Part shown: positions 1-49,499 of the stretch, piece by piece
How positions within the stretch are numbered: the stretch's first letter is position 1
How the letters are laid out: each line of letters starts with the position of its first letter
Source of the DNA: a virus
Virus record (IMG/VR): IMGVR_UViG_3300036830_000184
Location: 7,877-71,876 of that record
Direction: 5' to 3' (one strand)
DNA length: 64,000 nucleotides
Position numbers and translations under genes: made by a program
Notes under the pieces: generated by a model
Database searches by the model: none
Told to the model about the DNA's origin: nothing
The model's input: only the letters and a program-made list of their open reading frames with translations

Positions 1-288
1 GGTGATCTGGCGGTAGCCGCCGCCATCCACCCGATCAATCGAGAGGGAGATGACCTGCGGCGAGCCGTCCGCGTAAGTAATATGCAACGTAATCAACTGC
101 CGTATTTGTTGCAGCCGCCACGACTCTGCCGCCTGCCGGTTGTCCCATTCGAGGGCCGAATAGAGTGCGGATGCCTTATGCGCCCGTGCCCATTCGAGCG
201 CTTCCCTTGGATACAAAATCTTGTCAGGCGACTGAGTTTGTAGCGCCAATAACTCTTCGCGGATCGTGTGTTGAAGCCTCGACGCCAC
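1..288 (-). CDS. Hypothetical protein downstream of the RAMP gene and array A1 (partial, runs off the window)
   Basis: Not in the ORF track because it has no stop inside the window. GTG at 288 follows AAGGGGAACAAA. My translation is VASRLQHTIREELLALQTQSPDKILYPREALEWARAHKASALYSALEWDNRQAAESWRLQQIRQLITLHITYADGSPQVISLSIDRVDGGGYRQIT, open for 96 codons. Confidence 0.75.
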   Translation of the reverse strand, partial: MASRLQHTIREELLALQTQSPDKILYPREALEWARAHKASALYSALEWDNRQAAESWRLQQIRQLITLHITYADGSPQVISLSIDRVDGGGYRQIT

Positions 289-303
289 TTTGTTCCCCTT
301 TGT

Positions 304-612
304 TGCCTGCCACGCCCCACCGAACCAGGTGATGCCCTGCCTACGTCACCCAACCTGCCATGCCATGCCGATCCGGGCCGGAAGCTGATTAGCCGCGCCA
401 AAGAAAGCGCCACCTGCCCAGCCCCCCTTACGGAGCGTAGCCGTGATGAACCATGGTTCGCCCGCGCCGCCTCGATATGCCAGGACAGTCCTCGCCTACG
501 TTGCCGTTGGGTGCCTGCCATGCCGCTCCAGGTTAGACGTTGCGACACCACGCCTGGCGTTGCCCGCCATGCCAGTATTTGCGGAGCGAGGAGACACCTC
601 GCCACGCCTGCC
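304..612 (-). repeat. Pentamer (GGY/CGY-NN) array A1, candidate guide-RNA array
   Basis: The minus strand parses as GGCA GGCGT GGCGA GGTGT CTCCT CGCTC CGCAA ATACT GGCAT | GGCG GGCAA CGCCA GGCGT GGTGT CGCAA CGTCT AACCT GGAGC GGCAT | GGCA GGCAC ... GGCCC GGATC GGCAT GGCAT | GGCA GGTTG GGTGA ... GGTTC GGTGG GGCGT | GGCA GGCAA. It starts 7 nt after the RAMP stop codon. Confidence 0.85.
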
Positions 613-619
613 AAAAGCC

Positions 620-1558
620 TCAGTATTTGAGCACCTTGAACTCGCCCCAGCCGCAGCCGGCGCTCATCTTGCTATCGGGCCGGCCCTCGCCGACGCCAAC
701 CTGCTGGCCCGCTCGTGCCAATAAGTTAACGACATCGTTCGCCGAGAACTGGTCGCCGTCCCACTTCAGGATCAGTTGCGCTTGCCAGCCATCGGCGAAC
801 ATCGGCCGGGCGCGCAGGTCAATGCCGCCGTTGGCGTTGCGGCCGGGGCGGATGTCGCAGCGCGGTTCGCCCTTGGTGATCCGGACCAGACCGGTGCCCT
901 GTTCATCGAAGCCATCGGCCATGACGAACAGCGACATTTTGGCGATTGTCATTTTGAAACCCACCGTGCGGCAAGCCGAAATCAGTGCGTTTCTGAAAGC
1001 AGACGCGGGAATGCCGTCCCAGCCTTCTATCGCTCGGTGTCTGGCGTTCTCATAGTTCTCGTCAAAGTCGCGGGCCTGGCGCGTCTTGCCCTTGCGGCTT
1101 TGGCTGCCGGCTTCCTGGGTTGCGCGGATGGTGTTCTGCACCTTCTGGCTGAACTTATGCAGCACCAAGGGGGTGGTTCCCTCGATCGTGACGCGGGCGA
1201 GCTCGAACTTCGGCGGTGAGATAGAGACGCGCGCTTGTGGCTTCGTTTTGTCGTCGGGATCGGTCAACCCAAGGTCGCGGAGATCGGACCGGATCTCGAC
1301 CGGGGGCCGGCGCTGGCCGGGGATCGGCGCTTTGACCCGCGCGATGATCTCTTGTTCATCCGGGGTAACCCGCCTCGCCGCCGGGCTACCGCGCCGCTTC
1401 GGCGGTAGATAGTCGGTATCGGGCTGCAAGGTCTCATCGACGGTGACGGCAACTACCTTCCGGGGCCGGCCGCGCTTCTTCGGCTGTTGGACCAATAGCG
1501 CGCCTTCGTCTGGGTGCTCGCCGCTTGAGTAAGAATTCCCACGTGATTTCACAGCCAT
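620..1558 (-). CDS. Stand-alone Cas7/RAMP-like protein with a disordered AT-hook N-terminal extension
   Basis: ATG at 1558 with SD AAGGGGAG (track ORF 620-1720). The C-terminal ~195 aa carry RAMP signatures: first strand ARVTIEGTTPLVLH, GIPASAFRNALISA (cf. IPGSSLKGALR), and terminal Gly-rich loop VGVGEGRP...GCGWGEFKV. The N-terminal part has KKRGRPRK. Confidence 0.8.
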   Translation of the reverse strand: MAVKSRGNSYSSGEHPDEGALLVQQPKKRGRPRKVVAVTVDETLQPDTDYLPPKRRGSPAARRVTPDEQEIIARVKAPIPGQRRPPVEIRSDLRDLGLTDPDDKTKPQARVSISPPKFELARVTIEGTTPLVLHKFSQKVQNTIRATQEAGSQSRKGKTRQARDFDENYENARHRAIEGWDGIPASAFRNALISACRTVGFKMTIAKMSLFVMADGFDEQGTGLVRITKGEPRCDIRPGRNANGGIDLRARPMFADGWQAQLILKWDGDQFSANDVVNLLARAGQQVGVGEGRPDSKMSAGCGWGEFKVLKY

Positions 1559-1672
1559 GGCCAGGTGCTCCCCTTGTTGCCATTTTTCGGTGCCAATCAA
1601 ACCAATTTTGGTTGACGAAAAATAGCAAACCATGCTCACGTTTGGGCGGTCAAGCGAATATAGAAAATAGTC

Positions 1673-1870
1673 ATGCAAATACGCAAAAGTGAGAATGTTG
1701 TTATTCGGCTGCACAAACACGAGTTGGATGTCGTTGTTTTGGCGGCGGCGAGTAAATTCCTATCGCCAACAGCGTGGGTGCGGCATCTGGTTTTGTCGGA
1801 GAGTTTCAAAGTGAAGGAGGAGCTAACGGAAAAGGCAAAACGGACTGACGGTGTCCCTTTGGCATCGTGA
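1673..1870 (+). CDS. Small ribbon-helix-helix-like DNA-binding protein
   Basis: 65 aa with RKSENVVIRL (beta strand) then two helices (ELDVVVLAAA, SPTAWVRHLVL). Divergent from the RAMP gene across an AT-rich spacer. Confidence 0.6.
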   Translation: MQIRKSENVVIRLHKHELDVVVLAAASKFLSPTAWVRHLVLSESFKVKEELTEKAKRTDGVPLAS

Positions 1871-1882
1871 AGGCCCTCCATC

Positions 1883-2558
1883 GGCATGGCAGGTAGGGAC
1901 CGGCACCGTTCGCAACGAGTGATCGGCATGGCAGGCTCGGTTCCGATTTCAACTCACGGCAGGGTTTGAGTGGGCACCGCAGGTCGGGCGCCGGAGGTTT
2001 GGCGCCGGAGGAAAGGTTCGGCGGGCTTGGGTGTCGAGGTCTGGCTTCGACGGCGCGATAGGCTTGGCGGGCTAGGCATGGCCAGGGCGACGAGGCGCGG
2101 TGACTTAGGTTTGGCGGGCGAGGCAATTCGTGGCCTGGGTCGGTCGTGCATCGATAGGTGAGGTGAGGCAGGTGAGGGCGGCGTCCAAGGTAGGGCGTGC
2201 GCGGTGAAGCAACGCAGGCGAGGGGCACCAAGGCATCGCTCGATGACGATGGCCCCCTATGGCATGGCAGGCGAGGCATGGTCACGGCGACGAGGTGCGG
2301 TGACTCGGGTCTGGCAGGCGAGGCGCACTTGGCAGCGATGGTCCGACATGACGGGGCCGGCGGGGCACAGTGGGGATCGACGGGGCAACGCACCGAGAGG
2401 CGCGGCAGGCGAGGCGGAACAAGGTCGATACTGGCTTCTATCGGCTTGACTCGGCAGGCTCCCAAGAACGCGGCGGTCGGAGACAACCGGCCCGTCATGG
2501 CAGGCTAGGATTGGCACGGCCCGGCAACGCCAAACTTGGCGAGGCGTCGGGCTTACGG
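1883..2558 (+). repeat. Pentamer (GGY-NN) array A2
   Basis: Recurrent GGCATGGCAGG / GGCAGGC / GGCGGGC anchors every ~40-60 nt with 5-nt-phased GGY-NN units between them, e.g. GGTGA GGTGA GGCA GGTGA. Overlapping ORFs are Arg/Gly/Ala-rich shadows. Confidence 0.85.
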
Positions 2559-2559
2559 T

Positions 2560-2590
2560 GGCGGGGGATCTTCGGGTCTCTCGCCTTTCC
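2560..2590 (+). terminator. Hairpin/terminator closing array A2
   Basis: GGCGGGGGATC-TTCG-GGTCTCTCGCC followed by TTTCC: an 11-bp stem including G-U pairs and a C(UUCG)G tetraloop. Confidence 0.75.
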
Positions 2591-2658
2591 TTTGTCCCCG
2601 ATGGTAATGTTGAGCCGCCGGCCAGCAGCCCGGTCCCCCAACCATCCGGGACTCTGCC

Positions 2659-3570
2659 ATGTCGATCGGCCAGCGTTACTACACACCCAACCCATTCGAG
2701 ATCGACGCCAACGGCGTGCCACTCGCGTTTGCGCAGTTGTTCTTCTATGCAACCGGGACGAACACGCCGCAGGACACCTTCTCTGATGTCGGGTTGACGG
2801 TCGCCAACGCAAACCCGGTGCGTGCGGACGCCAACGGCCGGTTTGGCTCGATCTTTCTGGCCACAACCAACGGTTACGCGGTCTCATTGTGGACGGCGCC
2901 GACCACCGACAACCCCGGTGGGGTCCAGGTCTGGACGGAAGACCCGGTTGGCCCGGCGGCGGGTGGGGCGGTCAGCAATGTCGTCGGGATCATCGGCGAG
3001 ATCCGCCAGTTCGCCGGCATCGCGGCCTCGATCCCGAGCGGCTGGTATCAGTGCTATGGCCAGGCGGTCAGCCGCACAACCTACGCGGCAGCCTTCGCGG
3101 CGCTCGGCACAACCTGGGGCGCTGGCGATAGCTCGACCACGTTCAACCTGCCCGATCTACGCGGCCGGGTGACCGCTGGCCTCGACAACATGGGCGGTTC
3201 GGCGGCCGATCGGATCACCGCTGGGGTGTCGGGGATCGCCGGCACCACGCTTGGCGGGTCCGGTGGCGATCAGGCGCAGCAAGAGCACACCCACACCATC
3301 AATGATGGTGGGCACACCCATGCGCTTACCGATCCGGGGCACGTTCATACCGTCAATGTTGCCACCGCGGTGACGGGCGGATCGGCCGCGGGCCTATCGG
3401 CGACCGATGCGGCACCGGCCGTGGTGCCGTTCGGGGTCAACACCGCGACGACCGGGATCACTATCGCCTCGGCGACGACCGGGATCACGAACAGCAACAC
3501 CGGGGCCGGCGCGAGCCAGAACGTGCAGCCGACATCGATGGTCTACAGCATTATTTATCTAGGAGCGTAA
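2659..3570 (+). CDS. Tail fiber protein with tail-collar domain
   Basis: N-terminal DANGVPLA..LFFYATGTNTP..NPVRADANGR virion-attachment-type region, collar motif GEIRQFAG..PSGWYQCYGQAVSRTTYAA..FNLPDLRGR, and HTH/HVH repeats. Confidence 0.85.
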   Translation: MSIGQRYYTPNPFEIDANGVPLAFAQLFFYATGTNTPQDTFSDVGLTVANANPVRADANGRFGSIFLATTNGYAVSLWTAPTTDNPGGVQVWTEDPVGPAAGGAVSNVVGIIGEIRQFAGIAASIPSGWYQCYGQAVSRTTYAAAFAALGTTWGAGDSSTTFNLPDLRGRVTAGLDNMGGSAADRITAGVSGIAGTTLGGSGGDQAQQEHTHTINDGGHTHALTDPGHVHTVNVATAVTGGSAAGLSATDAAPAVVPFGVNTATTGITIASATTGITNSNTGAGASQNVQPTSMVYSIIYLGA

Positions 3571-5115: not shown

Positions 5116-6999
5116 TCATCCGCCATCGGCCGGGGGCTGCGCGGGTGGGGCCGTGTCGAGGGTCTTGAACCGAGCGCGCGCCGCCTTCTGCACCGCCTCG
5201 CAGAGTTCCGGCGCGGCGATCTTCAGGGTCGCCAAGTGGCGCACGACCGATTGGTTCTTCTCCAGGGCCGCCAGGGCAACGGCCGTTTTGCAGGCGGCGA
5301 TGTCACGCATCAGCCCGTCGTGGATTTCTTGCGGTGTTGGCATGGGCTTTTTGGTCAGGGCCTGTTGCTTGGCCTCCAGCAAAGTCTTGGCGGCGAGACG
5401 GTATTTCGGCGGGAAGTCGCGATAGATCGGCTCGTTGAGTTCGATCAGCCGGTTGAACTCATCCGGCGTGGCCACGGTGACCAGCACCTGACCGAAGCGT
5501 TCGTTCCAAGCGTCCCATCCGGCCTTGTTCGTGGTGGCCGGCGGAGCGAGTTGCAGCGGATCGGCCTCGGCGGCATCCGGTTGCGACTCGGGTTCGGGCT
5601 CGGGCTCGGGCGGCAGCCGTTCGTCAGTCGGTGGTTCCTGGATCGGCGGCCGCGGCGCCATGATCAGCATCGCCTCATGGCTGATACGGCCGGCAGCTTG
5701 GGCGTCCTCAATGTTAGCCTGGCGGATCAGTTCCACGTCGCCGGGGAAGCAGCTTGAGAGCGCCCGCATGAAGGCCCGCGCGTATTCGACGGGGTCGGTG
5801 TAACGCTCGCCGGTAAAGCCATCGCCCTCGATCGGTGAGCCGTCTGGGTCCACCAACCATGCCGAGAAAGCCGGAGGCTGACCGATCTGCACCTCGGGTT
5901 GGCTCGGCTCCGGGGGCTCGGGCGGCGGTGGTGACGCGGCAGCCGGCGGCGGCACGTCGGTTTTCGGCTTAGTGACGGCGGCGCGCGGCGGTTTCACGAC
6001 AACCGGCTCCGGTTTCACCTCTTCTCCCGGCGGCGTCTCCGGGTCGTTGGCCACCGAGCGCAGCCCGAAGGTCGCCGTCGTGTCGGTCTCGTCCTCGACC
6101 AGCGGGCCGTTCTCTTGGTAGCCGCCATCGGCAATGGAGGCGTCGCCGTCGATCACCGAACCGAAATCGATGGTGCCGCGATCCTGCGACTCATCGAGCG
6201 CCAGCACGCCGGCCAGTTCGACCGACTTCGGCAGCCACGCCGCCAAGGAACGGAACACGGTTTTGCCGCCCATCTTGCGTTCGTATTTGACCCACGGCGC
6301 CTCGGTCCAGGTCCCTGGCAACTTCCACCCGTTCTTCTCGGCCGCCTCTTTGGCCGCGAGCGCCGAGCGGAAGCCCTGACTGCCGTTGCGGATCTTGAGC
6401 ACGTCAGCCCACGGCATGACATGGAACGCCTGACCGGACCTTAGCGACGCGTGGGCATAAGCGAACATCGGCATTTCTTCGTCCGGCCGTGCCCGCTCGG
6501 GCCGATGGCTCAACACCGCGTTGGTGCCGTATTCAAACTTGAAGCGGCCGTTGTCGTATTCGTCTCTGTAGGCCACGTCGGCGTGGACGCTGGTCACCTG
6601 GCCCGAGCGATAGCTGAGATCGAGCAAGCCCGGATACCCGAAGATCAACTGCACCTCGTAGCCGATCAACTCCCGCTCGCGCTTCTGCTTGTTCCATTTG
6701 TATTTGCCGAAGGGGATCAGGAACGCGTGCTGCAATGGGGTGTTCGGTTCGAGGCCCACCTCGGAACAGGTGAGCATGGCACCGAGCACCGAGCGCATTG
6801 AGCATTGCAGCAGAAGCGGGGCTTTGGAGGTTGCCTGCACAAAAGTGCGGAGCATCCGCTGCGGCTTCACGTGGCTCGGGGCCGATGCCTTGATCCGCTC
6901 CATCAACTCGGCGGACTGGAAAGCCTCACCCAGGTTGCGGCAATCCTTCAGGGTCTTGAATTCCGCCCGGCTCGGTGCGGTTAGCTGTTGGCCGCTCAT
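5116..6999 (-). CDS. recT: RecT-family ssDNA annealing protein with long C-terminal extension
   Basis: LLQCSMRSVLGAMLTCSEVGLEPN..HAFLIPF..VQLIFGYPGLLDLSYRSGQV..MGGKTVFRSLAAWLPKSVE. Pro-rich linker and extra domains follow aa ~290. Confidence 0.85.
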   Translation of the reverse strand: MSGQQLTAPSRAEFKTLKDCRNLGEAFQSAELMERIKASAPSHVKPQRMLRTFVQATSKAPLLLQCSMRSVLGAMLTCSEVGLEPNTPLQHAFLIPFGKYKWNKQKRERELIGYEVQLIFGYPGLLDLSYRSGQVTSVHADVAYRDEYDNGRFKFEYGTNAVLSHRPERARPDEEMPMFAYAHASLRSGQAFHVMPWADVLKIRNGSQGFRSALAAKEAAEKNGWKLPGTWTEAPWVKYERKMGGKTVFRSLAAWLPKSVELAGVLALDESQDRGTIDFGSVIDGDASIADGGYQENGPLVEDETDTTATFGLRSVANDPETPPGEEVKPEPVVVKPPRAAVTKPKTDVPPPAAASPPPPEPPEPSQPEVQIGQPPAFSAWLVDPDGSPIEGDGFTGERYTDPVEYARAFMRALSSCFPGDVELIRQANIEDAQAAGRISHEAMLIMAPRPPIQEPPTDERLPPEPEPEPESQPDAAEADPLQLAPPATTNKAGWDAWNERFGQVLVTVATPDEFNRLIELNEPIYRDFPPKYRLAAKTLLEAKQQALTKKPMPTPQEIHDGLMRDIAACKTAVALAALEKNQSVVRHLATLKIAAPELCEAVQKAARARFKTLDTAPPAQPPADGG

Positions 7000-7609
7000 T
7001 CGGCGTGTGTCCTTTTGTCAAATCCTGAATGTGCCAATGCAGACGCAAGGTCATCTCCAGGTCGGTGGTGGCGTTGTGGGCATCGGTTACGCGCTCTCCA
7101 AGAAGGGTGCGCACAGCCTGCGTCAGGGTCGGTGACTTGAAGGTGTTGTTGCCGGCAGCCATCATCGCGCTGCTCGGGGGTAGTTTGCAGCGCGGGGTCG
7201 CGGCCTGCATCACATCGACAATGGGCTTCCGTTCCAAGGCTTCGATCTGGCGCCGGCTCGCGCCGTCACGCAGTAGGGCAATCCGCATAATACGCTGATC
7301 GAATAACGGCACATAGCCTAGGATGACCGATGCACGTGCCCAAGCGTCCATATAAGTCCTGGTGACGATTGACTCTTTCACGCCCAGCCGCACCGCTTCC
7401 TCTTGGGTGATGCCGTGGATCGCTATCGCGGCGGGGGGAATGATCCAGCCATCCGGGCGGACCACGAGGTCCCAGGCTGCAATTGCTTGGCGGGTGTTGG
7501 GATCAACGAGCTTGGCCGCGAACTGCACGATATGCGGTTGGCCCGGATCGTCACTCGGGGTTTTCCATAGGACTAAGCCGGTTGTCTCCAAGTCCATTGC
7601 CAGGATCAT
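6926..7609 (-). CDS. DEDDh 3'-5' exonuclease (DnaQ-like)
   Basis: MILAMDLETTGL (ExoI), HGIT, FDQRIM (ExoII), AHNATTD (ExoIII). The start at 7609 overlaps the upstream stop (ATGA). Confidence 0.85.
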   Translation of the reverse strand: MILAMDLETTGLVLWKTPSDDPGQPHIVQFAAKLVDPNTRQAIAAWDLVVRPDGWIIPPAAIAIHGITQEEAVRLGVKESIVTRTYMDAWARASVILGYVPLFDQRIMRIALLRDGASRRQIEALERKPIVDVMQAATPRCKLPPSSAMMAAGNNTFKSPTLTQAVRTLLGERVTDAHNATTDLEMTLRLHWHIQDLTKGHTPNERPTANRTEPGGIQDPEGLPQPG

Positions 7610-8621: not shown

Positions 8622-9097
8622 CACGGCAGGTCTGGATGATAGCCGCCCGCTTGGCCTTCGAGGTTTCTCAGCAAATCGCCCCATGTCGCCAACACCTTTT
8701 GGGTGCCATCGCCGGAATAGAAGGTCACCGCCGGCTCGGCGTGGCGGCGACGGACCCAGTCCAAACCTTCCTCAACCGTCAACCAAATGATCTCCGCCGC
8801 TAACTCCGCCACTCCGCGGCGCGGCGGCAGAGTTCCGAGGATCGCATTTGGATCGTTGTTGTCCCGCCCGGTCACGATCCCGTCGCTGAAGAACGGCTGG
8901 CGGTCCGGCTCACTCTTCAGCCGGAAGGCGCGGTCGGCTTTGCGCAGCATCCCGTCGTCGCTGAGATAGAGCGCATCGCCATCGGGATAGATCTTCCCGA
9001 GCGTCATGCTGCCGCCGAGCTTCTTGCCCATGTCGGAATATTCATAGGTCCATGGGGTGATGGTGCGACGCATCGCGTCGATGAAGAAACCCTTCAT
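8621..9097 (-). CDS. Hypothetical protein
   Basis: 158 aa ORF with normal composition, coupled within the leftward operon. Confidence 0.6.
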   Translation of the reverse strand: MKGFFIDAMRRTITPWTYEYSDMGKKLGGSMTLGKIYPDGDALYLSDDGMLRKADRAFRLKSEPDRQPFFSDGIVTGRDNNDPNAILGTLPPRRGVAELAAEIIWLTVEEGLDWVRRRHAEPAVTFYSGDGTQKVLATWGDLLRNLEGQAGGYHPDLP

Positions 9098-9224
9098 GTC
9101 AGCGCTCGGGGACGGCCCGAAGAACCGCCCCCTTGTCGCTGTTCATGCGATGCGGCGCCGATGGCACCCTGCCATGCAGCGCCTAACCACGCCATCAATA
9201 CCCTATCGCTCATGGGACCAAACC

Positions 9225-9578
9225 TCAAAATGGAATATGATTATCCAGATCCAACGCCCGCCTGGGATTGGCCGCCGCATGGTTGGGGCTGTAGATCATC
9301 GCCCACCGCCGCTGCCCCACCCGGAACTTGACTTCGCTCTCTGTGGCAAACCGACCGTAGTGATGCAGGGTCGTCAACTTCTCCAAGATCCACGGATTGG
9401 CCGAGGGACCGTCCCAGTCGCCGTCGATCATCGCCGACCATTGACCTTCAGCAAATCGGATCTCGCCGCCGACATAAGGTCCGCCCTTGACCAGCCGCAG
9501 CACATAAAATCCTGGCACGGGCTCATCGCTTCGCCTTGTTGCAAAAGGCTTGGGAAAATGCGAAATCAACGTGTTCAT
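9225..9578 (-). CDS. Hypothetical protein
   Basis: Likely start MNTLISH after GAGGGG. EPVPGFYVLRLVKGGPYVGGEI motif. Confidence 0.6.
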   Translation of the reverse strand: MNTLISHFPKPFATRRSDEPVPGFYVLRLVKGGPYVGGEIRFAEGQWSAMIDGDWDGPSANPWILEKLTTLHHYGRFATESEVKFRVGQRRWAMIYSPNHAAANPRRALDLDNHIPF

Positions 9579-9907: not shown

Positions 9908-10508
9908 AATTATTGCTGAAGCCTTAGTGGCTTACACCGCTGACAAGGGCGCGCACGATCGCACCGGGATGCAGATCGCGCGGAACCAAGCCAAGTATGG
10001 CCGGCTTGGTGTGTCGGCCGAGATGATCCGCCTGCTGCACAAAGAGAGTCGGCTGACCGAGGAAGAGCGGCAACAGAAGTATGCCAACGAACTGCGTTAC
10101 CGCAAAGCGGTCTCGCTCTGGGATGCCGAGTCCGAGGATGACTTTGCGATGGCGATGGAGGCGGCCTCGCAGACCCAGGCGGCCCACGGGCACGTGACCG
10201 ACTTGCTGGCAGCGGCCCGCTCCTACAATGACGGGTTTAACTCCGCGGCCCATGGCCGGGCGGACGAAGCGGCCAACCCCCATACCGCCGGCACGTTGCA
10301 GCACGCGCAGTGGGCCAAGGGCTGCAAGGATGGGATCAAGCACCTGAAGGAATTCGGTGAGGAACCGACCGCCGAGGGCGAGAAGCGGGGTCGCGGTCGC
10401 CCGCGCAAGGTTGTCGTGACCGAGCCCACACCCGAGCAAGAGGAAGAGGCTCAAGCTGGGGCCGAACCGGCCGGCGGAGGATTTGGCTTCCCGAGCATCC
10501 CGCACTGA
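9855..10508 (+). CDS. Hypothetical protein with RMF-like motif and AT-hook
   Basis: YNDGFNSAAHG..NPHTAGTLQHAQWAKGCKDG and KRGRGRPRK. Start uncertain (track ORF from 9753). Confidence 0.6.
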   Translation: MLEENGSAEMSGSNVVSEIIAEALVAYTADKGAHDRTGMQIARNQAKYGRLGVSAEMIRLLHKESRLTEEERQQKYANELRYRKAVSLWDAESEDDFAMAMEAASQTQAAHGHVTDLLAAARSYNDGFNSAAHGRADEAANPHTAGTLQHAQWAKGCKDGIKHLKEFGEEPTAEGEKRGRGRPRKVVVTEPTPEQEEEAQAGAEPAGGGFGFPSIPH

Positions 10509-11038
10509 TGGCGTGGATTGCGGGCGAGGTGATCCGGATTGAAATCCCCGGATCACCCAAGGCGGTCCCGCGACAGCGGCATAGGATCGTCACGCCCAAA
10601 AATAAGCCCGCGTTCGTCCACAACTATCAGGTCTCGGACTCACGGAACGAGGCTGCCGTGATCAGAGACTTTGCGCAGCAGGCGATGAACAAGCAGCCGC
10701 CGATCGAGGGGCCGGTGGAACTGCGCTTTGTCTGCTACATGCCGGTGCCACCGGGGTGGTCGATGAAGAAGCAGCGGGCTGCGCTCGCGGATCAGATCCG
10801 GCCGCACGGGCGCCCTGACGTGGACAACCTGTTGCGCCGGGTGGACTCATTCAAAAAGGTGATTTGGCGGGATGACTCGCAGATCACGGATGCTGCGGTG
10901 TGGAAGCGCTACAGCGACCGGCCGCGGGTGGTGGTCGAAATCAGGCCGCTGGTATTTCAGCAGGCGCAACCGGCGGCAAAGTCCAGGGTCGCCAATAGAG
11001 GTAACGCTCATCCCCCATCCACGGCTCTAGCTTCCTAG
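10508..11038 (+). CDS. rusA: RusA-family Holliday junction resolvase
   Basis: IPGSPKAVPRQR..IEGPVEL..RPDVDNL..VIWRDDSQI..KRYSDRPRVVVEI. Confidence 0.88.
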   Translation: MAWIAGEVIRIEIPGSPKAVPRQRHRIVTPKNKPAFVHNYQVSDSRNEAAVIRDFAQQAMNKQPPIEGPVELRFVCYMPVPPGWSMKKQRAALADQIRPHGRPDVDNLLRRVDSFKKVIWRDDSQITDAAVWKRYSDRPRVVVEIRPLVFQQAQPAAKSRVANRGNAHPPSTALAS

Positions 11039-11402: not shown

Positions 11403-11717
11403 TCACACCGGCCAGCCGTTGCGATCGGTCGGCGGCTTGTAGGGCGGAGCGGTCGCGCGCTCGGCGCGGGCCAGGGCAATCTCACGATCCAACTCAGCGC
11501 GGGCGCGGGCTCGGGCGCGGTCCCATGCGTCCGCCGCCATGGCTGGTCCTACGGTCCGGGCGCGCTCGGCTTTGGCCATGCGGGGAAATGAAATCTTCTG
11601 TTGGGTGGCGTGGTAATCGAGGATGTGCAGCTTCACGCCCAGTCGGTCGGCGGTCGCCTTGCGCGAGAAGCCACGGTTGGCGAAGTCCCGCATCCGCTCA
11701 ACATCCTCGGGTGTCAT
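11403..11717 (-). CDS. Small HTH-like protein
   Basis: GFSRKATADRLGVK helix-turn-helix pattern, coupled to the GcrA-like gene. Confidence 0.5.
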   Translation of the reverse strand: MTPEDVERMRDFANRGFSRKATADRLGVKLHILDYHATQQKISFPRMAKAERARTVGPAMAADAWDRARARARAELDREIALARAERATAPPYKPPTDRNGWPV

Positions 11718-12376
11718 GCGGCCACTCGCCGACCGGCCTTCATGTGTTCCTCGCAGTAGGGCTCGCCGGGCTGGGTGGCGTGGTCACAATAATGGAAACT
11801 CGGGGTGCGCGGGGTGCCGCATGGCCAACAGCATTCCGTCACGCGGCCTCGGTGGGTGGGGATCGGTGTCGATTTGGGGGGCGCTGGCGCGACGATCTTG
11901 GGTTTGGGCGCGCGTTTGATCACGACGCGAGGCAATGGCGGAAGGGGCGCCTCGGGTTTGACCGCCTTCGGGCGTGGTGTCACGGCGCGGACGCGTTTGG
12001 GGGCACCTTCAGGGTCGGGGTAAAGCGGACTAGGGCGGCGATCAAGGTCCAGGCGCGATGCCTTGCCGACGATGGCATTCTTTGAAAGATGGAGTTCCCG
12101 GCCGATCGCGGCCGTGGATTTGCCGGCGGCCCAACCGCTGCGCAGGATCGCGATCGTCTCCTCGTTCCAGGGGCTCGCTGGTTTCCTACGGCCAAGGCGC
12201 GGAAGGCCATAGCGGTGGCGGATGCGGTAGATGACCCGTTGGTCGCAGTCTAGGGCGATGCAGATCTGATCAACCGTTTTGCCCTCGGCAATAAGGGCCA
12301 GCATGTCGTCATCCGAGAAGCCGCGTTTCGCCGCGCAGATCGCCCGCAGTTTTGCTATCCCAGTTTCGGTATTCAT
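11714..12376 (-). CDS. gcrA: GcrA-like cell-cycle regulator with extra N-terminal HTH
   Basis: WNEETIAILRSGWAAGKSTAAIGRELHLSKNAIVGKASRLDL..RPSP and C-terminal CCWPCG..FHYC..GEPYCEEH. Confidence 0.85.
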   Translation of the reverse strand: MNTETGIAKLRAICAAKRGFSDDDMLALIAEGKTVDQICIALDCDQRVIYRIRHRYGLPRLGRRKPASPWNEETIAILRSGWAAGKSTAAIGRELHLSKNAIVGKASRLDLDRRPSPLYPDPEGAPKRVRAVTPRPKAVKPEAPLPPLPRVVIKRAPKPKIVAPAPPKSTPIPTHRGRVTECCWPCGTPRTPSFHYCDHATQPGEPYCEEHMKAGRRVAA

Positions 12377-13043
12377 CGGTCTCTCCCTCTGCGCCCTCGG
12401 GGATTAAAGACAGGTTGTGGGGCGCGAATTTCGTGATCAGGCCACGGAGGGTGCGTAGCGCGGCGATGATCTGTTGCGGTGTGGGGTGGGCCTGGGTGCC
12501 GTCATTGTAGGAGCCGTAACAGGATCGGATGGCCCGGCGCACCGTCTCCGGGTCGGACCATTCGGCGGCGCGGTCGCTAGAGTCGGAGGCCCAACCGAGG
12601 CGCACCGCCATTTCAGCGGCGCGAATGTCCGTCTTGAGCAAGTGGGCAAAGGCCGCGGGGTGATAGCGCCGAACCAGCGTCAAGGTGGCCGCGGCCCCTC
12701 GATCGGTGGGCTCAACGCGCAGCCAGCGGGCGATCCAGTTGCGGCCGTCGATATCCACCGGCGCGGTGGCGGCGGCCTCGGGCAGTGCATCGGACTCGGG
12801 GAGGTGCTGTTGACGCCAGCGGTTGAGGCGTTGGCGGATGTCGGCTTCCCGGAACCACTCCAGGTCGATCAGAACGTAGTTCGCGCTCTCTTCGTTGAAG
12901 GCGGCGAGCGGATAGGATTGGGAGAGGCTTGGCGCCATGATCTGCGTCTTGGCGTCGGCCTCGTCGGCGGAGTCATTGTTCGGCAGCCGGGACATGATCC
13001 ATAGCAGCCAGGTCCGAACCTCTTTGGGGGTTGCGCGTCTCAC
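12309..13043 (-). CDS. Hypothetical protein (replication module)
   Basis: 244 aa ORF directly downstream of the replication-like gene. Confidence 0.55.
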   Translation of the reverse strand: MRRATPKEVRTWLLWIMSRLPNNDSADEADAKTQIMAPSLSQSYPLAAFNEESANYVLIDLEWFREADIRQRLNRWRQQHLPESDALPEAAATAPVDIDGRNWIARWLRVEPTDRGAAATLTLVRRYHPAAFAHLLKTDIRAAEMAVRLGWASDSSDRAAEWSDPETVRRAIRSCYGSYNDGTQAHPTPQQIIAALRTLRGLITKFAPHNLSLIPEGAEGETDEYRNWDSKTAGDLRGETRLLG

Positions 13044-14358: not shown

Positions 14359-15705
14359 TCCCGGCACGGCTGCGCAGGCAGTCCAACATCCAGGCGGGAA
14401 TACCCGCCGTCACGGCTGGTTTGAGGTGGATGGCGACCCGCGGCAACGCAAGGCCAGGGGTGGCGCTGCCGGTGTGGTCTATCTGTTAGTGGCTAGGCGC
14501 GATGGGCATGGCAGGTCACGCAGGGCAGGTGTGTTCCGGATTGGTCTTCGCTTTGCAACGCCAGGCTGATCGGGGCAACGCAGGCTGCCCGAGGCGAGGT
14601 TGAGCGAGGCACCGAGCGCCAGGCAGGTAAGGTGGGCGAGGCACCGCGCTGCGCATCGAGGTAAATCCTTGCGTGGCAGGCTATTCGAGGCACGTGCGGC
14701 TACGCCATCCGAGGCGTCGCTAGGTTAAGCGAGGCGGGTTTGGTTGGTGGGGCGGGGCTTCTCTGGGTTCGCTCGGCGGGTGCGGCGAGGATATCAGGGC
14801 TGCGTTGGGTTCGCTTGGCGGGTTTGGTGAGGATGACGGGGCTGCGTTGGCGGGGTAGCGATGGCCGGCATTGCTCGGAAAGTCATCGCACCGCTTATCT
14901 GGGCGTCGCAGGCTGGGTCGCTTTAGGCGCGAAGAGCTAGGGACGGCTAGGCACGGCAGGCGTGGATAGGCGTGATTGGCTTGGCAACGGAGGCAAGGCA
15001 GGCGTGGAACGGTTGGCTCTTCGTGGTTCCGGACGTGAGGTGTTTCATTTCGCGGTGAGGCAGGCTGATCGGACCGGGGCATCGTAGGCGTGGCGGGTGA
15101 CGTTGACCGTCGCGAGTTTGGGCGACGCATGGTGAGGCCGGGCAGGTCGGGTGTCGCGACCTTGCGATGGAAAGGACTGGTTTGGCAGGTCCGGCAACGT
15201 TGGCAACGCCTCGTAGGCTAGGCAGGTTCGGTTGGTGGCGTGGGCAACGCAGCGACCGTAGGTTATGGCGGGCGAGGCAGGGTGTCGCTTCTCCTGTCCA
15301 GGCCGGAAAGGCAGGCTAGGCATGGCCGAATTTGGCCGGGCTTCACTGGGTTTGGCTGGGCCGGCAACGTTGGCGTCTCAACGCTGGGTCAGGCATGGCT
15401 CGCAGGCTAATCGGCACTTCGGTGCCCAATACCCACGAGGGATCAACCCTCGGTCACGGCAGGCACGGCCACGCGACTCCGCTTCTGGCCAGTCAAGGTG
15501 AGGCAGGCGTGGTTTGGATGGCAGCGCCACGCTCCGCAAGGAACGGCAGGCAGGGCATCGCAACGCGCTTCGGGGTAAGGATCTGGCCAGGCAGGCAATC
15601 GGCACTTCGGTGCCCAACACCCATGAGGGGATCAACCCTCAGTCACGGCAGGCAAGGCGTGGCAGGGGCGGCGACGCGTTTCGCGGCCTGAACTGGCCCG
15701 GCTAG
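14323..15705 (+). repeat. Pentamer (GGY-NN) array A3, the largest (~1.4 kb)
   Basis: More than 20 GGCAGG/GGCGGG/CGCAGG anchors at ~40-60 nt spacing with 5-nt-phased units, e.g. GGCTA GGCAC GGCA GGCGT GGATA GGCGT. No credible CDS. One more unit lies upstream at 14082-14134. Confidence 0.85.
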
Positions 15706-15714: not shown

Positions 15715-15748
15715 GGGGAGAGTCCGGGGTCCAACTCGGACCCTCCCC
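15715..15748. terminator. Hairpin between array A3 and the convergent GH5 gene
   Basis: GGGGAGAGTCCGGG-GTCCAA-CTCGGACCCTCCCC inverted repeat. Confidence 0.6.
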
Positions 15749-15802
15749 ATCCCGCCTATAATTTTGTGCGGCCTTCACCGCAGTTAACGATTGCGGCTCG
15801 GC

Positions 15803-18043
15803 TCACGGCAACAATGCGGTGTCGGCTCTGACCTTCGCCAAGGCCGTCACGGCGCCCGTCAGCACGCCATTGATAGCATCGATCTCGGCCTGAACCGAAG
15901 CCACGGTCACGCCGGTCGGGGGTGGCGGAGGCGGCGGAGGTGGCGTGACGCCGATCGGGTTGGCCGCAGCGGTGGCCGAGATCAGCCCGGCAATCAGTTG
16001 GCCGTAGGGTGTGATCTGGCCGGCATCGGTGACCATCTGGTCGCCTTGCTCGTCCGGATTGAAGGCCCACGCGCAATAGGACATGCCGGAGGCGCCCACC
16101 ACCTGGCAAACTTGCGTCCCGTTGGCATCGACCGCACCGCCGGTTGTGGAGTTGCCGAACTCGCCGATCACCACGGGCACCAGACCATCCAGCGAGGTGA
16201 TCGATTGCGCGCCGGCCACACCGGAGGCACCGCCGACCGAGCCTTGCAGGCCAGCCTTGATCGTCGGGATATCGGTGGAGAAGTTGGTTACCCACCCATA
16301 GTAGTGAAGGTCCCAACAAATGTTATACATGGTTGCATAGAGCGCGGGCGTCATCGGCCCTTTGCCGTCGTAACCCGTCGCCTGGCTGCCCACGAGGCCC
16401 GGATTGCCGCCGGAGGGTTCCTCCATGAACACCAGCGCAAAGCTGCCGGCGCCCCGGATGGCGTCATAGATCGCCTTTTCCTGCGTCGCGATGCCGGCCA
16501 GATTGTTGCCGTTGCCGGGCTCGTTGAAGGTGCCGAAGGCCACGTAGGGGTTGGCCTTGTAGGCCGCCGCCATGGCCGCATACCACTTGACCTCGGCGGC
16601 AAGCTGGCTCCCGGTGAGCGGCGGCGCGCTGATCCCGGTGTGATCCTCGAAGATCATCAGGGTCTGTTGCGCGGTCGCCCATTGGATGAAGGCGGCGTAG
16701 GTCGACGGGTCAGAATAGGCCCGATTGGCAATCCGCAGGATGCGTGTGCCGGGGAACATCGTGCCGGTCTTGGCGCTGACCGTGTCCATCTGGTCTTGGT
16801 TGAGGTTGAAGCCGCCGGCCGCGAGGACCGACCCATCCGGGCGCAGGATCTTGGCACCGGAGACCTTGAAGAAGCCGGCTGGCGTCGGGTTGGTGCCGGG
16901 TGGGGGCGGGGGCGGCGTCACGCCACCGGGGAGTGGGCTCGTCGTGGTGGCACCGGACCAGCTTGACCCGAGCCACGAATACCAACTCCCGGCCGTGTTC
17001 TGTTGCCAGATGACGCCCTTCTCCAGGGCCATGAGGGTGACGTTTTTGGTCGTCGTGTCGTTGACGTTGTTGCGCGCGATGGTGCCGGCCGGGGTGATCG
17101 TCCAGACATTGCCGGTGGCGTCGGTGATCGAGCCGGTGCCGGGGGTGATGCGGGTGTCGTCGGGCGAGGGTGTGATGGTCACGGGTGGGGTGACTCCTGT
17201 TCCAGATGCGGTCTGCGCCGCCGCCCAATCCCAGATCGGCTTGCCGGCGGGGAGCGGGCAGTAACTGTCCCAGACATCATGGCCCTTGTTCGGATCGAAC
17301 AGTAGCCGGAAGGCGGAGGTGCCCGCCTGCGCACCGGCTGGCCCGCTGACCGTGGGGGCGCCGTTGGCGAAGTGCGCCCACACGGCCAGGTCCCAATTCG
17401 GCGGACTGGTGGTGTCACCGGCGCCATGCACGGCAAAGATCGGCACGCCGGTGATGGTCTCGAACTGCGCCGCGGTCGGCCCCACGCCGTAGCCGTTGCG
17501 CTCGATCACGCCGGCCATGGGAATGAAGGCGCAGAAGGTCCGGCTGCGGGTGCCGTTTTTGGTGTTGTGATCCAGCGCCTGCGCCCATGAGCCGATGCCG
17601 CCGAGCGAGGCCCCGCCGACCACGAGGGCATCCGGGTCGGCCCCGAGATTGGTCACGGCATACTGCGCACAGAGCGCGACCGAGTCCTCGTTGGCGTCGT
17701 CGTTGGGCGGGGTCCAGCCGCCGAAGTTCTGCTCCACGTCGCTGCCGGTGGTCTGATCGCAGGCCGGAACCAAGATCAACCAGGGGTAGGCGCCCATGAA
17801 GGCGGAGTTGTTGAACCACGCATCGGCCTGGCAGGCTTGGGGTAGCGCGTCATCACCATTATACGCCCGGTTGCCTTCTTCGTCCTCATGCTCCCAGACG
17901 AGGCAGCGATACTTGCCACCTGCAACCCATCCCGGAGGAGCCAGCACGTAGAAGATCATCTTCTGCCCGGACGGCAGGGTGGGACCCGTCGGGAGTTGGA
18001 AGCGGGTCCACTTGCCCGGAACGAGTGAGGTGGGATTGGTCAT
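15803..18043 (-). CDS. Alpha/beta-hydrolase (esterase) plus GH5 glycoside hydrolase fusion
   Basis: N-domain GASLGG nucleophile elbow, HGAGD and GHDVW (Ser-Asp-His triad). Pro/Thr linkers. C-domain FNEP, DLHYY, VVIGEFG and CAWAF, matching GH5 motifs. Confidence 0.82.
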   Translation of the reverse strand: MTNPTSLVPGKWTRFQLPTGPTLPSGQKMIFYVLAPPGWVAGGKYRCLVWEHEDEEGNRAYNGDDALPQACQADAWFNNSAFMGAYPWLILVPACDQTTGSDVEQNFGGWTPPNDDANEDSVALCAQYAVTNLGADPDALVVGGASLGGIGSWAQALDHNTKNGTRSRTFCAFIPMAGVIERNGYGVGPTAAQFETITGVPIFAVHGAGDTTSPPNWDLAVWAHFANGAPTVSGPAGAQAGTSAFRLLFDPNKGHDVWDSYCPLPAGKPIWDWAAAQTASGTGVTPPVTITPSPDDTRITPGTGSITDATGNVWTITPAGTIARNNVNDTTTKNVTLMALEKGVIWQQNTAGSWYSWLGSSWSGATTTSPLPGGVTPPPPPPGTNPTPAGFFKVSGAKILRPDGSVLAAGGFNLNQDQMDTVSAKTGTMFPGTRILRIANRAYSDPSTYAAFIQWATAQQTLMIFEDHTGISAPPLTGSQLAAEVKWYAAMAAAYKANPYVAFGTFNEPGNGNNLAGIATQEKAIYDAIRGAGSFALVFMEEPSGGNPGLVGSQATGYDGKGPMTPALYATMYNICWDLHYYGWVTNFSTDIPTIKAGLQGSVGGASGVAGAQSITSLDGLVPVVIGEFGNSTTGGAVDANGTQVCQVVGASGMSYCAWAFNPDEQGDQMVTDAGQITPYGQLIAGLISATAAANPIGVTPPPPPPPPPTGVTVASVQAEIDAINGVLTGAVTALAKVRADTALLP

Positions 18044-18343
18044 AAAGCGCACGCTCCCCGAAAAGTGAGGCGCATAGCGCAAAGCCAGGACAACCGCCAG
18101 TGAAAGGGTGGGAAAGTTACGCTACCGCCGCCGAAGAGGCCAAATTCACTCAGGCATGGGAGAGGACTCGGCCTTGCCTTCGGCGGCGACAGGTGCCCAC
18201 CATCAGGAGCGGGGTGATCGGACCGTGAAATCCGATAACCAAGCCATCGTTTCGACTGCACCGAAAGAGGCTTAATGGTTGACGAAAAACGTATAGACCA
18301 TTCTGAAGTCCCGCAAGTCCCCGCGAAGTCACGGGTGGTTTAG

Positions 18344-28292: not shown

Positions 28293-28638
28293 TGGATCAA
28301 ACTCCAAGGGGTTAAGGGTCTCAGACTTAGCGACCGCCGTTCACGTATAGCTTCAGCGTCAACAGCGCCTTGAGCACGTCGTTTGCCGCGGCGATCTGAT
28401 TGCGAATGTTGGCTTCATGCCATTTGTTGCACCGCCGCACTTCGATTTTCAGCCGTTCGATCTCACCGCCATAGTAGGCAAGATCCGCTTCGACGCGCGT
28501 ATCTGGGATTGGCGAAAAAGCCATCAGCCGGATTTCGTCTGCCACTTGTGGCGCTCCGTGGTATCCGGCGGATAATTCCGAACCGGCCGAAAAATAGTTG
28601 CACAAAAACTATTTATTGTATTGTCACAAAATCGCGCT

Positions 28639-28899
28639 CTAGCTCGCGATTTCCTCCGCCCGCATATCCTCGGTGCGCCATTTTTCCGGCAGTTGGTGGG
28701 CAGTGTGGAATTCCGCCAGTATCCGCAGCCACGCCCCCACATAGCGCGGCACCTCACGCACGCCAGACGCCCAGCGCGCCGACACGCGTGTGTCGATCCC
28801 CAACATCCAGGCGATATCGCTCACCCGCCAGCCAATCGCTTTGATGCACTCGCGGAACTCATCGGGGTGCATGATCGGGATCGCGTCGCGCTCGGTCAT
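28639..28899 (-). CDS. Small XRE-like HTH protein
   Basis: MHPDEFRECIKAIGWRVSDIAWMLGIDTRVSARWASGVREVP. Confidence 0.7.
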   Translation of the reverse strand: MTERDAIPIMHPDEFRECIKAIGWRVSDIAWMLGIDTRVSARWASGVREVPRYVGAWLRILAEFHTAHQLPEKWRTEDMRAEEIAS

Positions 28900-28925
28900 C
28901 TACCGGATCTCCTATTTAGGCCGCG

Positions 28926-29342
28926 TCACCACGGCGCCTTTTTGTAGGCTTCAAGCCCCTCGATGACCTCGAACGCTAACACGTGCAGCGCTTCGTCCAT
29001 CGCCACCGACAGCGGCAGGTCGCCGTTCTCGCCTTCGTCGCACTGGTAAGACAGAACGCGCAGCGCTTTCCAGCAGACTACTAGGTCGTCATGCGAGAGA
29101 GGCCGCCAGTCCGTGAAGTCGAACGCCAGCGACGCCGCCGATGCCGCCGGCTCGTTGGGGTAGCGGCTCGCGTAGGCCGCCGCGTTCAGTTTGAAGAGCG
29201 CGCGCCCGATGTCGCGCCCCGCGTAGGTCTCTTCGGTCCAGAACGGTCCAAACCGGGTGATCAGGTTTCGACCGCCCCGCTTGTAGAGGATCGCGCGAAT
29301 AGCCTTCGTCATGGTCTCAGTGTCAACGATCGAACAGGACAT
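28926..29342 (-). CDS. Hypothetical early protein
   Basis: LFKLNAAAYASRY..KALRVLSYQCDEG; good SD. Confidence 0.65.
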   Translation of the reverse strand: MSCSIVDTETMTKAIRAILYKRGGRNLITRFGPFWTEETYAGRDIGRALFKLNAAAYASRYPNEPAASAASLAFDFTDWRPLSHDDLVVCWKALRVLSYQCDEGENGDLPLSVAMDEALHVLAFEVIEGLEAYKKAPW

Positions 29343-33002: not shown

Positions 33003-34088
33003 ATGGAACTTACGCAAGCGTCCCGCCAGTGGGCAAGCCGTCCGAATGATGAGCGTTTCGTCTCGCTAGACGACATGCTCTCGCATTTCCGCGCAGTGCG
33101 TGGCCAGTCACGTGAAGTCGTCGCACCGTCCAAGCGCCTGCAAGTTATCCCGCAGGATGACCATCGCGGTCTCATGCTCACCGGACCCAATGGTCACCCA
33201 TACGCCCCTACAAACTGGTCATTTGGCCAACTCGCCGCACTGGCGGAGGCACCCGCAGGATATCTCCGCAAACTGCCGGCGGAACTAGCGGCCGATTGTA
33301 TCAACGTCGGCTTGCAAGTTCTCCGCCAACAAGAGGATATCGGCTGTCTGCTCTATCGTGGCGATGGCACACCAGAGCTTCGCGCCGCGACCGGTCCAAA
33401 ATATGGGCGGATCTGGAATTCGGACGTGGTCAGCGGCTTAGTCGACCGTTTCGGCGATGGCATCCATGGTCAGTTCCGCGTGCCGGGCGAATTCGGCAAA
33501 GCTGTCACGGTCGACAAGAGCAACACGACCCTTTACGCGTCCGACCGGGATATGTTCGTATTTCTGGCGGACGAAGAGCGACGCATCAGCATACCAAACC
33601 GGCGCCATGGCGAGCCCGGAGAACTGGCGAGAGGCTTTTTCGTCTGGAACTCCGAAGTAGGGTCATCGACTTTCGGCATCGCGACATTTCTCTTCGACTA
33701 TGTCTGTATGAACCGGATTGTGTGGGGAGCAACAGACTTCCAAGAACTCAAGATCCGCCACACCGGAGGCGCACCGGACCGGTTTTTCCGTGAAGTCGCT
33801 CCCGCCCTACAGACCTATGCCAACTCATCAACAACAGGCGTCCAAGCGGCAATCGAGGATGCCCGCAAGGTTAACCTCGGTGATGACCTAGACGCCTTTC
33901 TCGCCACCCGGTTCAACAAGAGCCAGATCTCCAGCATGAAGGCCGCACACCTGCTAGAAGAGGAGCGGCCAATAGAGACACGCTGGGACGTGGTGGTCGC
34001 CGCGACCGCAGTAGCCAGAGGCATCGAACACCAAGACGCCCGCGTTGACCTTGAACGCGCAGCCGGCAAACTACTGACCATCGCCTAA
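33003..34088 (+). CDS. DUF932-family protein
   Basis: RQWASRPNDERFVSL..PTNWSFGQLA..LRAATGPKYGRIWN..YASDRDMFVFL..RGFFVWNSEVG..VCMNRIVWG..IRH. Confidence 0.75.
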   Translation: MELTQASRQWASRPNDERFVSLDDMLSHFRAVRGQSREVVAPSKRLQVIPQDDHRGLMLTGPNGHPYAPTNWSFGQLAALAEAPAGYLRKLPAELAADCINVGLQVLRQQEDIGCLLYRGDGTPELRAATGPKYGRIWNSDVVSGLVDRFGDGIHGQFRVPGEFGKAVTVDKSNTTLYASDRDMFVFLADEERRISIPNRRHGEPGELARGFFVWNSEVGSSTFGIATFLFDYVCMNRIVWGATDFQELKIRHTGGAPDRFFREVAPALQTYANSSTTGVQAAIEDARKVNLGDDLDAFLATRFNKSQISSMKAAHLLEEERPIETRWDVVVAATAVARGIEHQDARVDLERAAGKLLTIA

Positions 34089-34110
34089 ACATCCCTCTCC
34101 CAACTAACCA

Positions 34111-34148
34111 AGCCCGGATTAGCTCCCCCAAGAGCGTCCGGGCTTTTT
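34111..34148 (+). terminator. Rho-independent terminator
   Basis: AGCCCGGA...TCCGGGCT followed by TTTT, just after the DUF932 stop. Confidence 0.7.
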
Positions 34149-34181
34149 GCTGTCAACCGTTCCGTGATATGCGCCAAGACC

Positions 34182-34655
34182 ATGTCCGACGCCCAACTCA
34201 TCGTTAATTCCAACCTGCTCCGCCAACATAAATCCGCCGCGACCGAGGCAGATCCTGACCACGGTCTAACCAACCGACAGTGGAAATTCGTCCAACACTA
34301 CGTAAGCCTGCCAAATGGCACACAAGCCGCGATCGATGCAGGCTATTCCGTTAAATCGGCCGCAGAACAAGCATCGCTACTTCTGAGCAATGCTAAGATT
34401 AAAAGCGCAATTGATCGGCAATTGGCTGTAGCGGCCGAACGCTGTGCAGTGACGACCGACTCCGTCCTTCGCGGTCTCGTGCGAGAGTCCACCTATGCAG
34501 GTCCGGGTGCCAGCCATGCGGCGAGGGTTAGAGCGCTGGAACTATTGGGGAAAACCCTGTCAATGTTCACCGACCAGACCGCCATCATTGGCCCAGATGG
34601 GCGCCCGGTGGACCGCTTCGCACCCGTGTTTCTTCAGGTCATCCGCAATGGCTGA
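34182..34655 (+). CDS. terS: Terminase small subunit
   Basis: LTNRQWKFVQHYV..NGTQAAIDAGYSVKSAAEQASLLL..ALELLGKTLSMF. Confidence 0.88.
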   Translation: MSDAQLIVNSNLLRQHKSAATEADPDHGLTNRQWKFVQHYVSLPNGTQAAIDAGYSVKSAAEQASLLLSNAKIKSAIDRQLAVAAERCAVTTDSVLRGLVRESTYAGPGASHAARVRALELLGKTLSMFTDQTAIIGPDGRPVDRFAPVFLQVIRNG

Positions 34656-34992
34656 TAAATCTATCGGCCTCTCGATCAAATGAAGGTTTGACGATGCACT
34701 GCGCCAGTGTTGCCACCACGGACGCGTGTGTGATGCACCGTCGCCACACATAGCCGCGCTTTCTGCCCCCCCACCCCCCAAGTTTGTCCTGGGCGAGGAC
34801 TGGGACGGGTCCCCCCCTTCCCACACGACAATCTGAGATTTGGGAGACCGTCCTGTAGCCTCCCTTCCTCACAATTTTTTGAGGTTTGCAGAGGCTGCGC
34901 GTTTGCCCGAAAAAAATCTGAGTTGCTGGGCTGCCGGTTTTTTTTTGCGTTCGGTGTGAGAGATCGTCTCCCAGAAAATTTGGGAGTGAGGA

Positions 34993-36106: not shown

Positions 36107-36124
36107 CTGGCGAGGGGCGCGTCC

Positions 36125-48874: not shown

Positions 48875-48888
48875 CTCCGGCTGTATTG

Positions 48889-48921: not shown

Positions 48922-48922
48922 T

Positions 48923-48977: not shown

Positions 48978-48990
48978 GCCAGCAGTCTGC

Positions 48991-49470: not shown

Positions 49471-49499
49471 CTCGGCTCCTGCAAGGTGGCCGGATAATC

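Follow-up and report, generated by a model that had tools for sequence, protein, structure and literature searches.

A probable VIPR locus with scattered GGY/NN pentamer arrays in a 71.9-kb soil phage genome

Known VIPR systems and the phage locus

The systems named VIPR (for Viral Interference Programmable Repeat) perform RNA-guided DNA silencing and were described in four bioRxiv preprints of 2026, where a minimal RAMP protein (Vipr) is found together with GGY/NN RNAs (vrRNAs) of 9-16 YNNGG repeats that carry a 3' tail (10.64898/2026.04.26.720920). Here we describe a RAMP-type gene and its adjoining GGY/NN tracts in the virus record IMGVR_UViG_3300036830_000184. The locus was analysed in a stretch of 64,000 nucleotides (nt), referred to as the window, which corresponds to bases 7877-71876 of this 71,876-bp record. 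The record was rated as 100% complete by CheckV and belongs to a soil phage with a GC content of 63%. We read the locus as the VIPR locus of this 71.9-kb phage with a probability of about 0.88. The phage system is therefore a member of an already published kind, since VIPR was described in the 2026 preprints. An earlier reading of the window, made from its letters without database searches (the sequence-only reading), had likened the locus to phage systems of the VIPR type, and this comparison proved right; the possible novelty that it left to a literature check did not survive that check.

Seven VIPR types are distinguished in the same preprint, which also describes the genes vap1-6, staggered and ribozyme-interspersed arrays, a rule by which 1 nt is skipped on double-stranded DNA (dsDNA) and a frequent internal degeneracy of vrRNAs (10.64898/2026.04.26.720920). 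In the cryo-electron microscopy structure of the SUSP1 system, one protomer is present per repeat, and each GGY is held by a pair of adjacent protomers while the NN pair is displayed; the residues that hold G1, G2 and Y3 are H17, R138, D177, W178 and R179 (10.64898/2026.04.26.720927). The other two preprints report a competition study with solo vrRNAs (10.64898/2026.10.15.759431) and a survey by language model, in which 99 period-5 clusters were recovered (10.64898/2026.10.21.760802). VIPR is a recently described way of reading DNA with RNA, in which NN pairs are matched with gaps along a RAMP filament, and was proposed to be older than CRISPR. The phage locus adds a member with good support to a branch that is large and has been little studied.

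The phage locus resembles SUSP1 VIPR, the type II reference, in having a small RAMP with a G-loop, long non-coding GGY/NN tracts on its flanks and a two-gene layout. Both are phage-borne with no cas genes or CRISPR array, and four of the five GGY-contacting residues are kept or conservatively changed. In contrast, the sequence likeness to SUSP1 Vipr is distant, W178 is replaced by glycine, and the arrays are long, run-on and slipped at GGCA where SUSP1 has separate vrRNAs of ~100 nt with a pseudoknot tail. An N-terminal extension of 100 amino acids (aa) with an AT-hook-like motif, a partner gene unrelated to vap1, a divergent array and scattered, degenerate arrays far from the locus are particular to this phage.

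The vipr gene, its product and the partner gene

The vipr gene was located at 620-1558 on the minus strand (stop codon 620-622) and encodes 312 aa with the RAMP core at aa 101-312. The open reading frame (ORF) spans 620-1720 (-) and includes an ATG at 1558, a start which agrees with the N-termini of homologs P0002-P0004. Its translation contains TIEGTTPLVLH, IPASAFRNAL and GVGEGRP..GWGEF, the motifs on which the sequence-only reading had based its call of a RAMP-type gene. This call was borne out by the structure predicted for the core from an 86-sequence alignment (pLDDT 94.8), which has a RAMP fold and finds its best structural matches among the Cas7 subunits of type III and type VII systems. 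No match for the protein was found in Pfam or PADLOC, and in PHROGs aa 120-309 matched phrog_4652 (function unknown) with an E value of 2e-15. The family is large: of 2,838 candidates, 1,686 matched in one search, and a further search gave 2,228 clusters when grouped at 50% identity (E<=0.001). Most homologs were found to be ~225 aa long and cover only aa ~105-310 of the phage protein.

When the family profile was compared with all PDB sequences, the SUSP1 Vipr chain 36pp_D was the only match below E 0.1 (E 4.6e-6, the next being at E 0.38). The single phage sequence reached SUSP1 Vipr with an E value of 0.17 only. The 36pp_D segment is contained in the SUSP1 coding sequence (CDS) 28474-29061, and hhalign aligned the phage Vipr family with this CDS over 172 columns (Prob 94.6, E 7.3e-8). 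These alignments indicate that the phage protein is related in sequence to SUSP1 Vipr, for which a structure has been solved. In the hhalign alignment the five GGY-contacting residues H17, R138, D177, W178 and R179 correspond to H134, R251, E291, G292 and R293 of the phage protein, so that three are identical, D177 is conservatively changed to glutamate and W178 is lost. The sequence-only reading had proposed that each subunit grips one triplet and displays the NN pair. The SUSP1 structure agrees with one protomer per repeat and with the display of NN, but there each GGY is shared by two protomers (10.64898/2026.04.26.720927).

The N-terminal 100 residues (bases 1259-1558, minus strand) form an extension with the stretch KKRGRPRK at aa 27-34 (bases 1457-1480), which was read by eye, and not by a tool, as an AT-hook-like motif. 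An RGRP-type core was observed in the N-terminal part of 13 of 269 homologs, and we infer that the extension may bind DNA. In the main text of the preprint that defines the VIPR types, neither 'AT-hook' nor 'N-terminal' occurs (10.64898/2026.04.26.720920). We noticed that homolog P0207 (290 aa) has an N-terminal segment of ~60 aa which by eye is winged helix-turn-helix-like and takes the place of the AT-hook-like extension; Vipr proteins may have acquired differing DNA-binding heads. A natural Vipr with such an extension is of interest because the VIPR authors propose synthetic Vipr fusions.

The gene had been taken for a lone one, but a conserved partner lies beyond array A1, and the order on the minus strand is vipr, A1, a winged-helix-like partner gene and array A0. 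The 5' part of the partner (vap-like) gene occupies 1-288 (-), and its full ORF (G000:C1:7559-8164 (-), 201 aa) crosses the left edge of the window. A0 covers ~770 nt past the partner gene on the same strand (G000:C1:~6790-7560, outside the window). The vipr locus therefore extends beyond the left edge of the window and farther than the sequence-only reading had placed it. The first 135 aa of the partner protein recur beside vipr in 61 of the 80 related viral loci, and in each of these the two genes share a strand. The protein is winged-helix-like at a modest Z score; no Pfam family matched it, and a comparison with SUSP1 vap1 showed no likeness (Prob 0.5).

On the other side of vipr, a divergent intergenic region (1559-1672) is presumed from its position only to hold promoters. 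It is followed by a small ORF of 65 aa at 1673-1870 (+), ahead of array A2, which is ribbon-helix-helix-like by eye only. This ORF had no match in Pfam, PHROGs or PADLOC and was missing from all 80 related loci, and it may not be a gene.

No cas genes were found among the 58 ORFs scanned with PADLOC, where the sole Cas entry was a phage HNH endonuclease that matched Cas9 weakly through its HNH domain, and the TRF listing contained no CRISPR-like repeats. The same two scans gave no cas10, csm or cmr partner beside a repeat-spacer array, and the statement of the sequence-only reading that the window lacks cas genes and CRISPR was thus upheld.

Pentamer arrays in the phage and its relatives

Two arrays of GGY/NN pentamers flank vipr. 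A1 (290-618) lies on the strand of the gene, between vipr and the partner gene, and its first GG-led run begins at 612, which is 7 nt past the stop codon. A2 (1860-2590) lies on the plus strand, opposite to vipr, and ends with a terminator-like hairpin at 2560-2585. In A2 the recurrence of GG was found to be about twice the expected value at lags 5 (42 observed, 23.0 expected), 9 (45, 22.8), 10 and 14 (47, 22.7). In A1 (290-620) the signal is formed by CC on the plus strand, with 21 observed and 9.7 expected at lag 5 and about twofold values at lags 5, 9, 10 and 14; the GG-rich strand is therefore that of vipr itself. The lag-5 controls were flat (12/8.2 in the vipr gene and 13/12.3 in the neighbouring gene at 2660-3570). 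The lag-5 peak that the sequence-only reading had expected was thus recovered, and its observation of the two arrays was confirmed.

The spacings between successive GGY triplets, taken over seven arrays of the phage, fell into the classes 0 to 4 modulo 5 as 279, 26, 19, 47 and 158 (n=529), as against 242, 209, 223, 308 and 264 in coding controls, which is near flat. Since most spacings are 0 or 4 modulo 5, the unit is one of 5 nt with frequent -1 slips, typically a GGCA before the next GG; these slips are the 4-nt punctuation described in the sequence-only reading. When the arrays were tiled with a score on G2 and Y3 only, position 1 was observed to be G in 51% and C in 24% of units, and the four bases were used evenly at positions 4 and 5, as anticipated for GGY/CGY units with two variable bases. 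Every array had a tiling score that lay about 3-10 standard deviations above the average of 20 shuffles. The proposal that each 40-60-nt segment is one guide was not established. In run-on arrays of this type the 4-nt slips may mark guide boundaries. The arrays resemble the staggered arrays of other VIPR types, in which successive vrRNAs overlap by 1 nt (fig. S18 legend, 10.64898/2026.04.26.720920). Going by this legend, a G shared at the junction of GGCA and GGC, read as GGCAG + GGC.., would give the -1 slip seen in the phage and in the related loci L008, L040 and L005. These clean relatives have long GGC-NN runs with occasional GGCA slips, whereas slips are about three times as frequent in the phage.

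The sequence GGCATGGCAGG, with one mismatch at most, occurs in 19 copies where 2.67 are expected, most of them within the tracts. We also noticed GGCAACGC, which consists of a GGCAA unit and a CGC.. unit and occurs 15 times (5.8 expected). Nine copies are in arrays and on the array strand, at 557-, 2384+, 2523+, 14442+, 14574+, 15202+, 15243+, 36150- and 49556-.

The association of array and gene was examined in viral contigs, in which a scan with the single Vipr protein found no relative. A pattern search gave 492 matches. A relative was encoded in 444 of them, and the set was brought to 80 loci with a closer alignment, the wide one being too diverse. Our main rule asked for an array no shorter than 250 nt and no farther than 1.5 kb from the homologous gene; by this rule, a same-strand array was present in 75 of the 80 loci (downstream in 73 and upstream in 13). 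An opposite-strand array within 1.5 kb was present in none of the 80, unlike A2 in the phage. When the rule was relaxed to 150 nt or more at any place in the locus, these counts rose to 78 and 22 respectively; of 589,749 bases in total, 53,810 were then array bases on the strand of the gene and 4,570 were array bases on the other strand. By the main rule, arrays were also present in 9 of 10 loci from bacterial metagenome-assembled genomes of many phyla. Two clean arrays follow the homolog of cyanophage Cy-LDV1. Mycobacterium phage Donkeykong (NC_051648.1) has a perfect in-phase array with 20 GGY in 100 nt (L084 ~2771-2900), which lies just upstream of the Vipr homolog gp49 and inside the annotated CDS gp48, a 'gene' which is probably a vrRNA array. 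Arrays of this kind can therefore be misannotated as genes. The expectation that homologs adjoin period-5 arrays thus holds across these sets.

Four soil DNA runs had word shares of 0.07-0.21, and contigs of near relatives showed differences from the phage that each rest on a single contig at a depth of 2-5. In near-identical contigs of run X1, exactly 5 nt were missing at 555 in A1, while in A2 42 nt were skipped between two copies of GGCATGGCAGG (1882-1925) and 47 nt at 2264-2312. Six substitutions were seen in A2 at the same depth, two at N, two C/T changes at Y and two in units without GG, and none of them removes a GG. This variation suggests that the arrays may gain and lose whole units, and it is thin evidence for the VIPR reading.

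Further arrays are distributed far from vipr, at 14360-15700 (+) (A4, ~1.3 kb, followed by a hairpin at ~15715-15750), 36060-36830 (-) (A5), 49475-49830 (-) (A6a, upstream of the ORF at 48991-49470 (-)) and 61450-61800 (+) (A7). Two short units are similar to solo vrRNAs. A6b (48880-48985, minus strand) lies downstream of the same ORF and has ~11 pentamers with a strong hairpin and a T run (fold z -3.55), and A8 (55135-55260, plus strand) has ~10 in-phase pentamers and then a hairpin (fold z -3.86). Together with 2503-2595 (+), these are the three candidates for a tailed vrRNA, with 9-11 in-phase units followed by a hairpin, while most arrays are without a tail. Like the vrRNAs described as solo or orphan in satellites and in phages that are VIPR-null, A6b and A8 stand away from vipr; unlike the published ones, which are described in elements without vipr or at a deleted vipr-vap1 site, they occur at several distant intergenic sites of a phage that has vipr (10.64898/2026.10.15.759431).

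In total, our detector marked nine segments of at least 250 nt in the phage, with 5,270 nt. One of them (16051-16360) was discounted as a likely false call because it is inside the coding ORF 15803-18082. Degenerate arrays are present at about nine sites in all and occupy roughly 5 kb, or 7% of the genome. The G-rich stretches at 11640-12000, 34960-35340, 34000-34200, 63600-63860, 12380-12650 and 9060-9310 and in the first 175 bases of the genome were rejected for having no 5-nt spacing. Within A4, an element of ~60 nt was observed twice (15409-15441 and 15597-15629, plus strand), with the hairpins GGCACTTCGGTGCC and GAGGGATCAACCCTC and then CACGGCAGGCA. It has no further copies in the window and a fold z-score of only -1.7, and may represent either the tail of a vrRNA or a signal for processing. 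In the provirus record of a relative, one array (G002:C1:33114-33683, minus strand) was seen about 26 kb from vipr, so that distal arrays are not unique to the phage studied.

Proposed mechanism and competing explanations

In the mechanism that we favour, the arrays would be transcribed, A2 divergently and up to its hairpin, and the transcripts would then be cut into vrRNAs as in SUSP1. Vipr protomers would polymerise on this RNA, one per pentamer, holding GGY through H134, R251, E291 and R293 and leaving the two N bases exposed. The filament would bind dsDNA in which the NN pairs find their match when one base is passed over between pairs (xNN), if the 1-nt-skip rule holds in this clade, and this binding would silence the transcription of a rival mobile element. 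The AT-hook-like extension and the partner protein would probably help in the engagement of DNA.

Several observations weigh against the VIPR reading. Published vrRNAs have 9-16 clean repeats, and the arrays here are far more degenerate: the longest strict YNNGG run is of only 3 units in A2 and of 4 units in A1, in-phase runs have a median of 5 units, and spacings of 4 modulo 5 form 36% of the in-frame ones (0 or 4 modulo 5) compared with 8-16% in L008, L040 and L005. The threshold of the published vrRNA caller, at least 4 YNNGG units, is reached once in A1 (310-329) and nowhere in A2, so the pentamer feature is present statistically and barely by a strict caller. A glycine takes the place of W178, the residue that stacks on G2 in SUSP1. 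A scan of 1-3000 gave no sigma-70-like promoter. In the two closest viral relatives, L003 and L004 (68% identity), no array near the gene reaches 250 nt; with a locus that is cut short they are among the five viral loci of this kind.

The search for targets gave no target. None of 31 in-phase segments (at least 8 units) matched the phage and the 80 loci better than its own shuffles with skips of 0-3, the 1-nt skip included, and the apparent hits at skip 3 were arrays matching themselves. The exact xNN patterns of A6b and A8 had 0 matches in viral contigs, and that of A6b had 0 in genome contigs and metagenome contigs. This result says little on whether targets exist, because it is uncertain where the guides end and the published rule, at 80%, is laxer than exact matching.

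The short runs and the failure to find a target are also what one would expect if vipr is real but most tracts do not work as guides. The tracts, chiefly those that are distal and the most degenerate, would then be remnants that have decayed or lost function, or intergenic DNA which is G-rich for another purpose, for example to punctuate transcription. The same detector found 650, 1,630 and 300 nt of array in three near-complete relatives, mostly beside vipr, and a strict six-unit pattern on the records of five relatives matched in three, near vipr only, which fits this explanation. Against it, the distal tracts share the period, the -1 slip, GGCATGGCAGG and GGCAACGC with A1 and A2, the N positions are evenly used in a genome of 63% GC, a number of tracts are closed by stable hairpins on the strand of the array, and internal degeneracy of vrRNAs is frequent according to the published description (10.64898/2026.04.26.720920). 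We regard this account of the tracts as unlikely. A different function of the protein, that of a guide-bound RAMP which like Csm3 or Cmr4 recognises or cuts RNA and does not silence dsDNA, is suggested by the type III and type VII Cas7 subunits being its best structural matches. Identity with these RAMPs (Csm3, Cmr4, Cas7) is 9-15%, and the register is 5 nt and not 6 nt. The tracts consist of pentamers and not of repeats and spacers, the scans described above gave no cas10, csm or cmr partner and no CRISPR array, and the sole solved relative found by profile is a DNA-binding silencer. We hold this function to be very improbable here. Finally, ORFs of 63-230 aa overlap A2, open frames occur in a GC-rich genome, and mycobacteriophage annotators did place a CDS over such an array, as would be the case if the tracts were coding sequence or a by-product of composition. 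A period of 5 instead of 3, which shuffles and coding controls fail to reproduce, and the company that the tracts keep with one gene family across phyla leave almost no room for that explanation.

If the distal tracts do function within the VIPR system, their arrangement raises a tentative possibility, which we hold to be doubtful. The approximately nine tracts on both strands lie in gaps among early, lysis and structural genes, and they might form sets of guides for each transcription unit or infection stage, or decoys against the Vipr of rivals, with the AT-hook tethering the filament to DNA. Such a genome-wide organisation of tracts is absent from the main texts of the VIPR preprints, in the parts covered. 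A partner unlike vap1 and an unusually large, scattered set of arrays in a single phage are testable features.

The remaining genes in the window are of phage type and include those for a tail collar (2659-3570), RecT (5116-6999), RusA (10508-11038) and a DNA methylase, besides a portal-like and a capsid gene; no tRNA genes were found. With Rfam, nothing near a gathering score was obtained on 1-3000 or on the entire window, and no hammerhead or other ribozyme was present. A weak match to the alphaproteobacterial small RNA suhB/mmgR at 35689-35783 (+) scored 25.5 bits (E 0.48), where the gathering score is 41, and is probably due to chance. The ORF at 15803-18082 (-) encodes 759 aa with a GH5 cellulase domain (Pfam E 3.1e-15) and is perhaps a tail-associated depolymerase.

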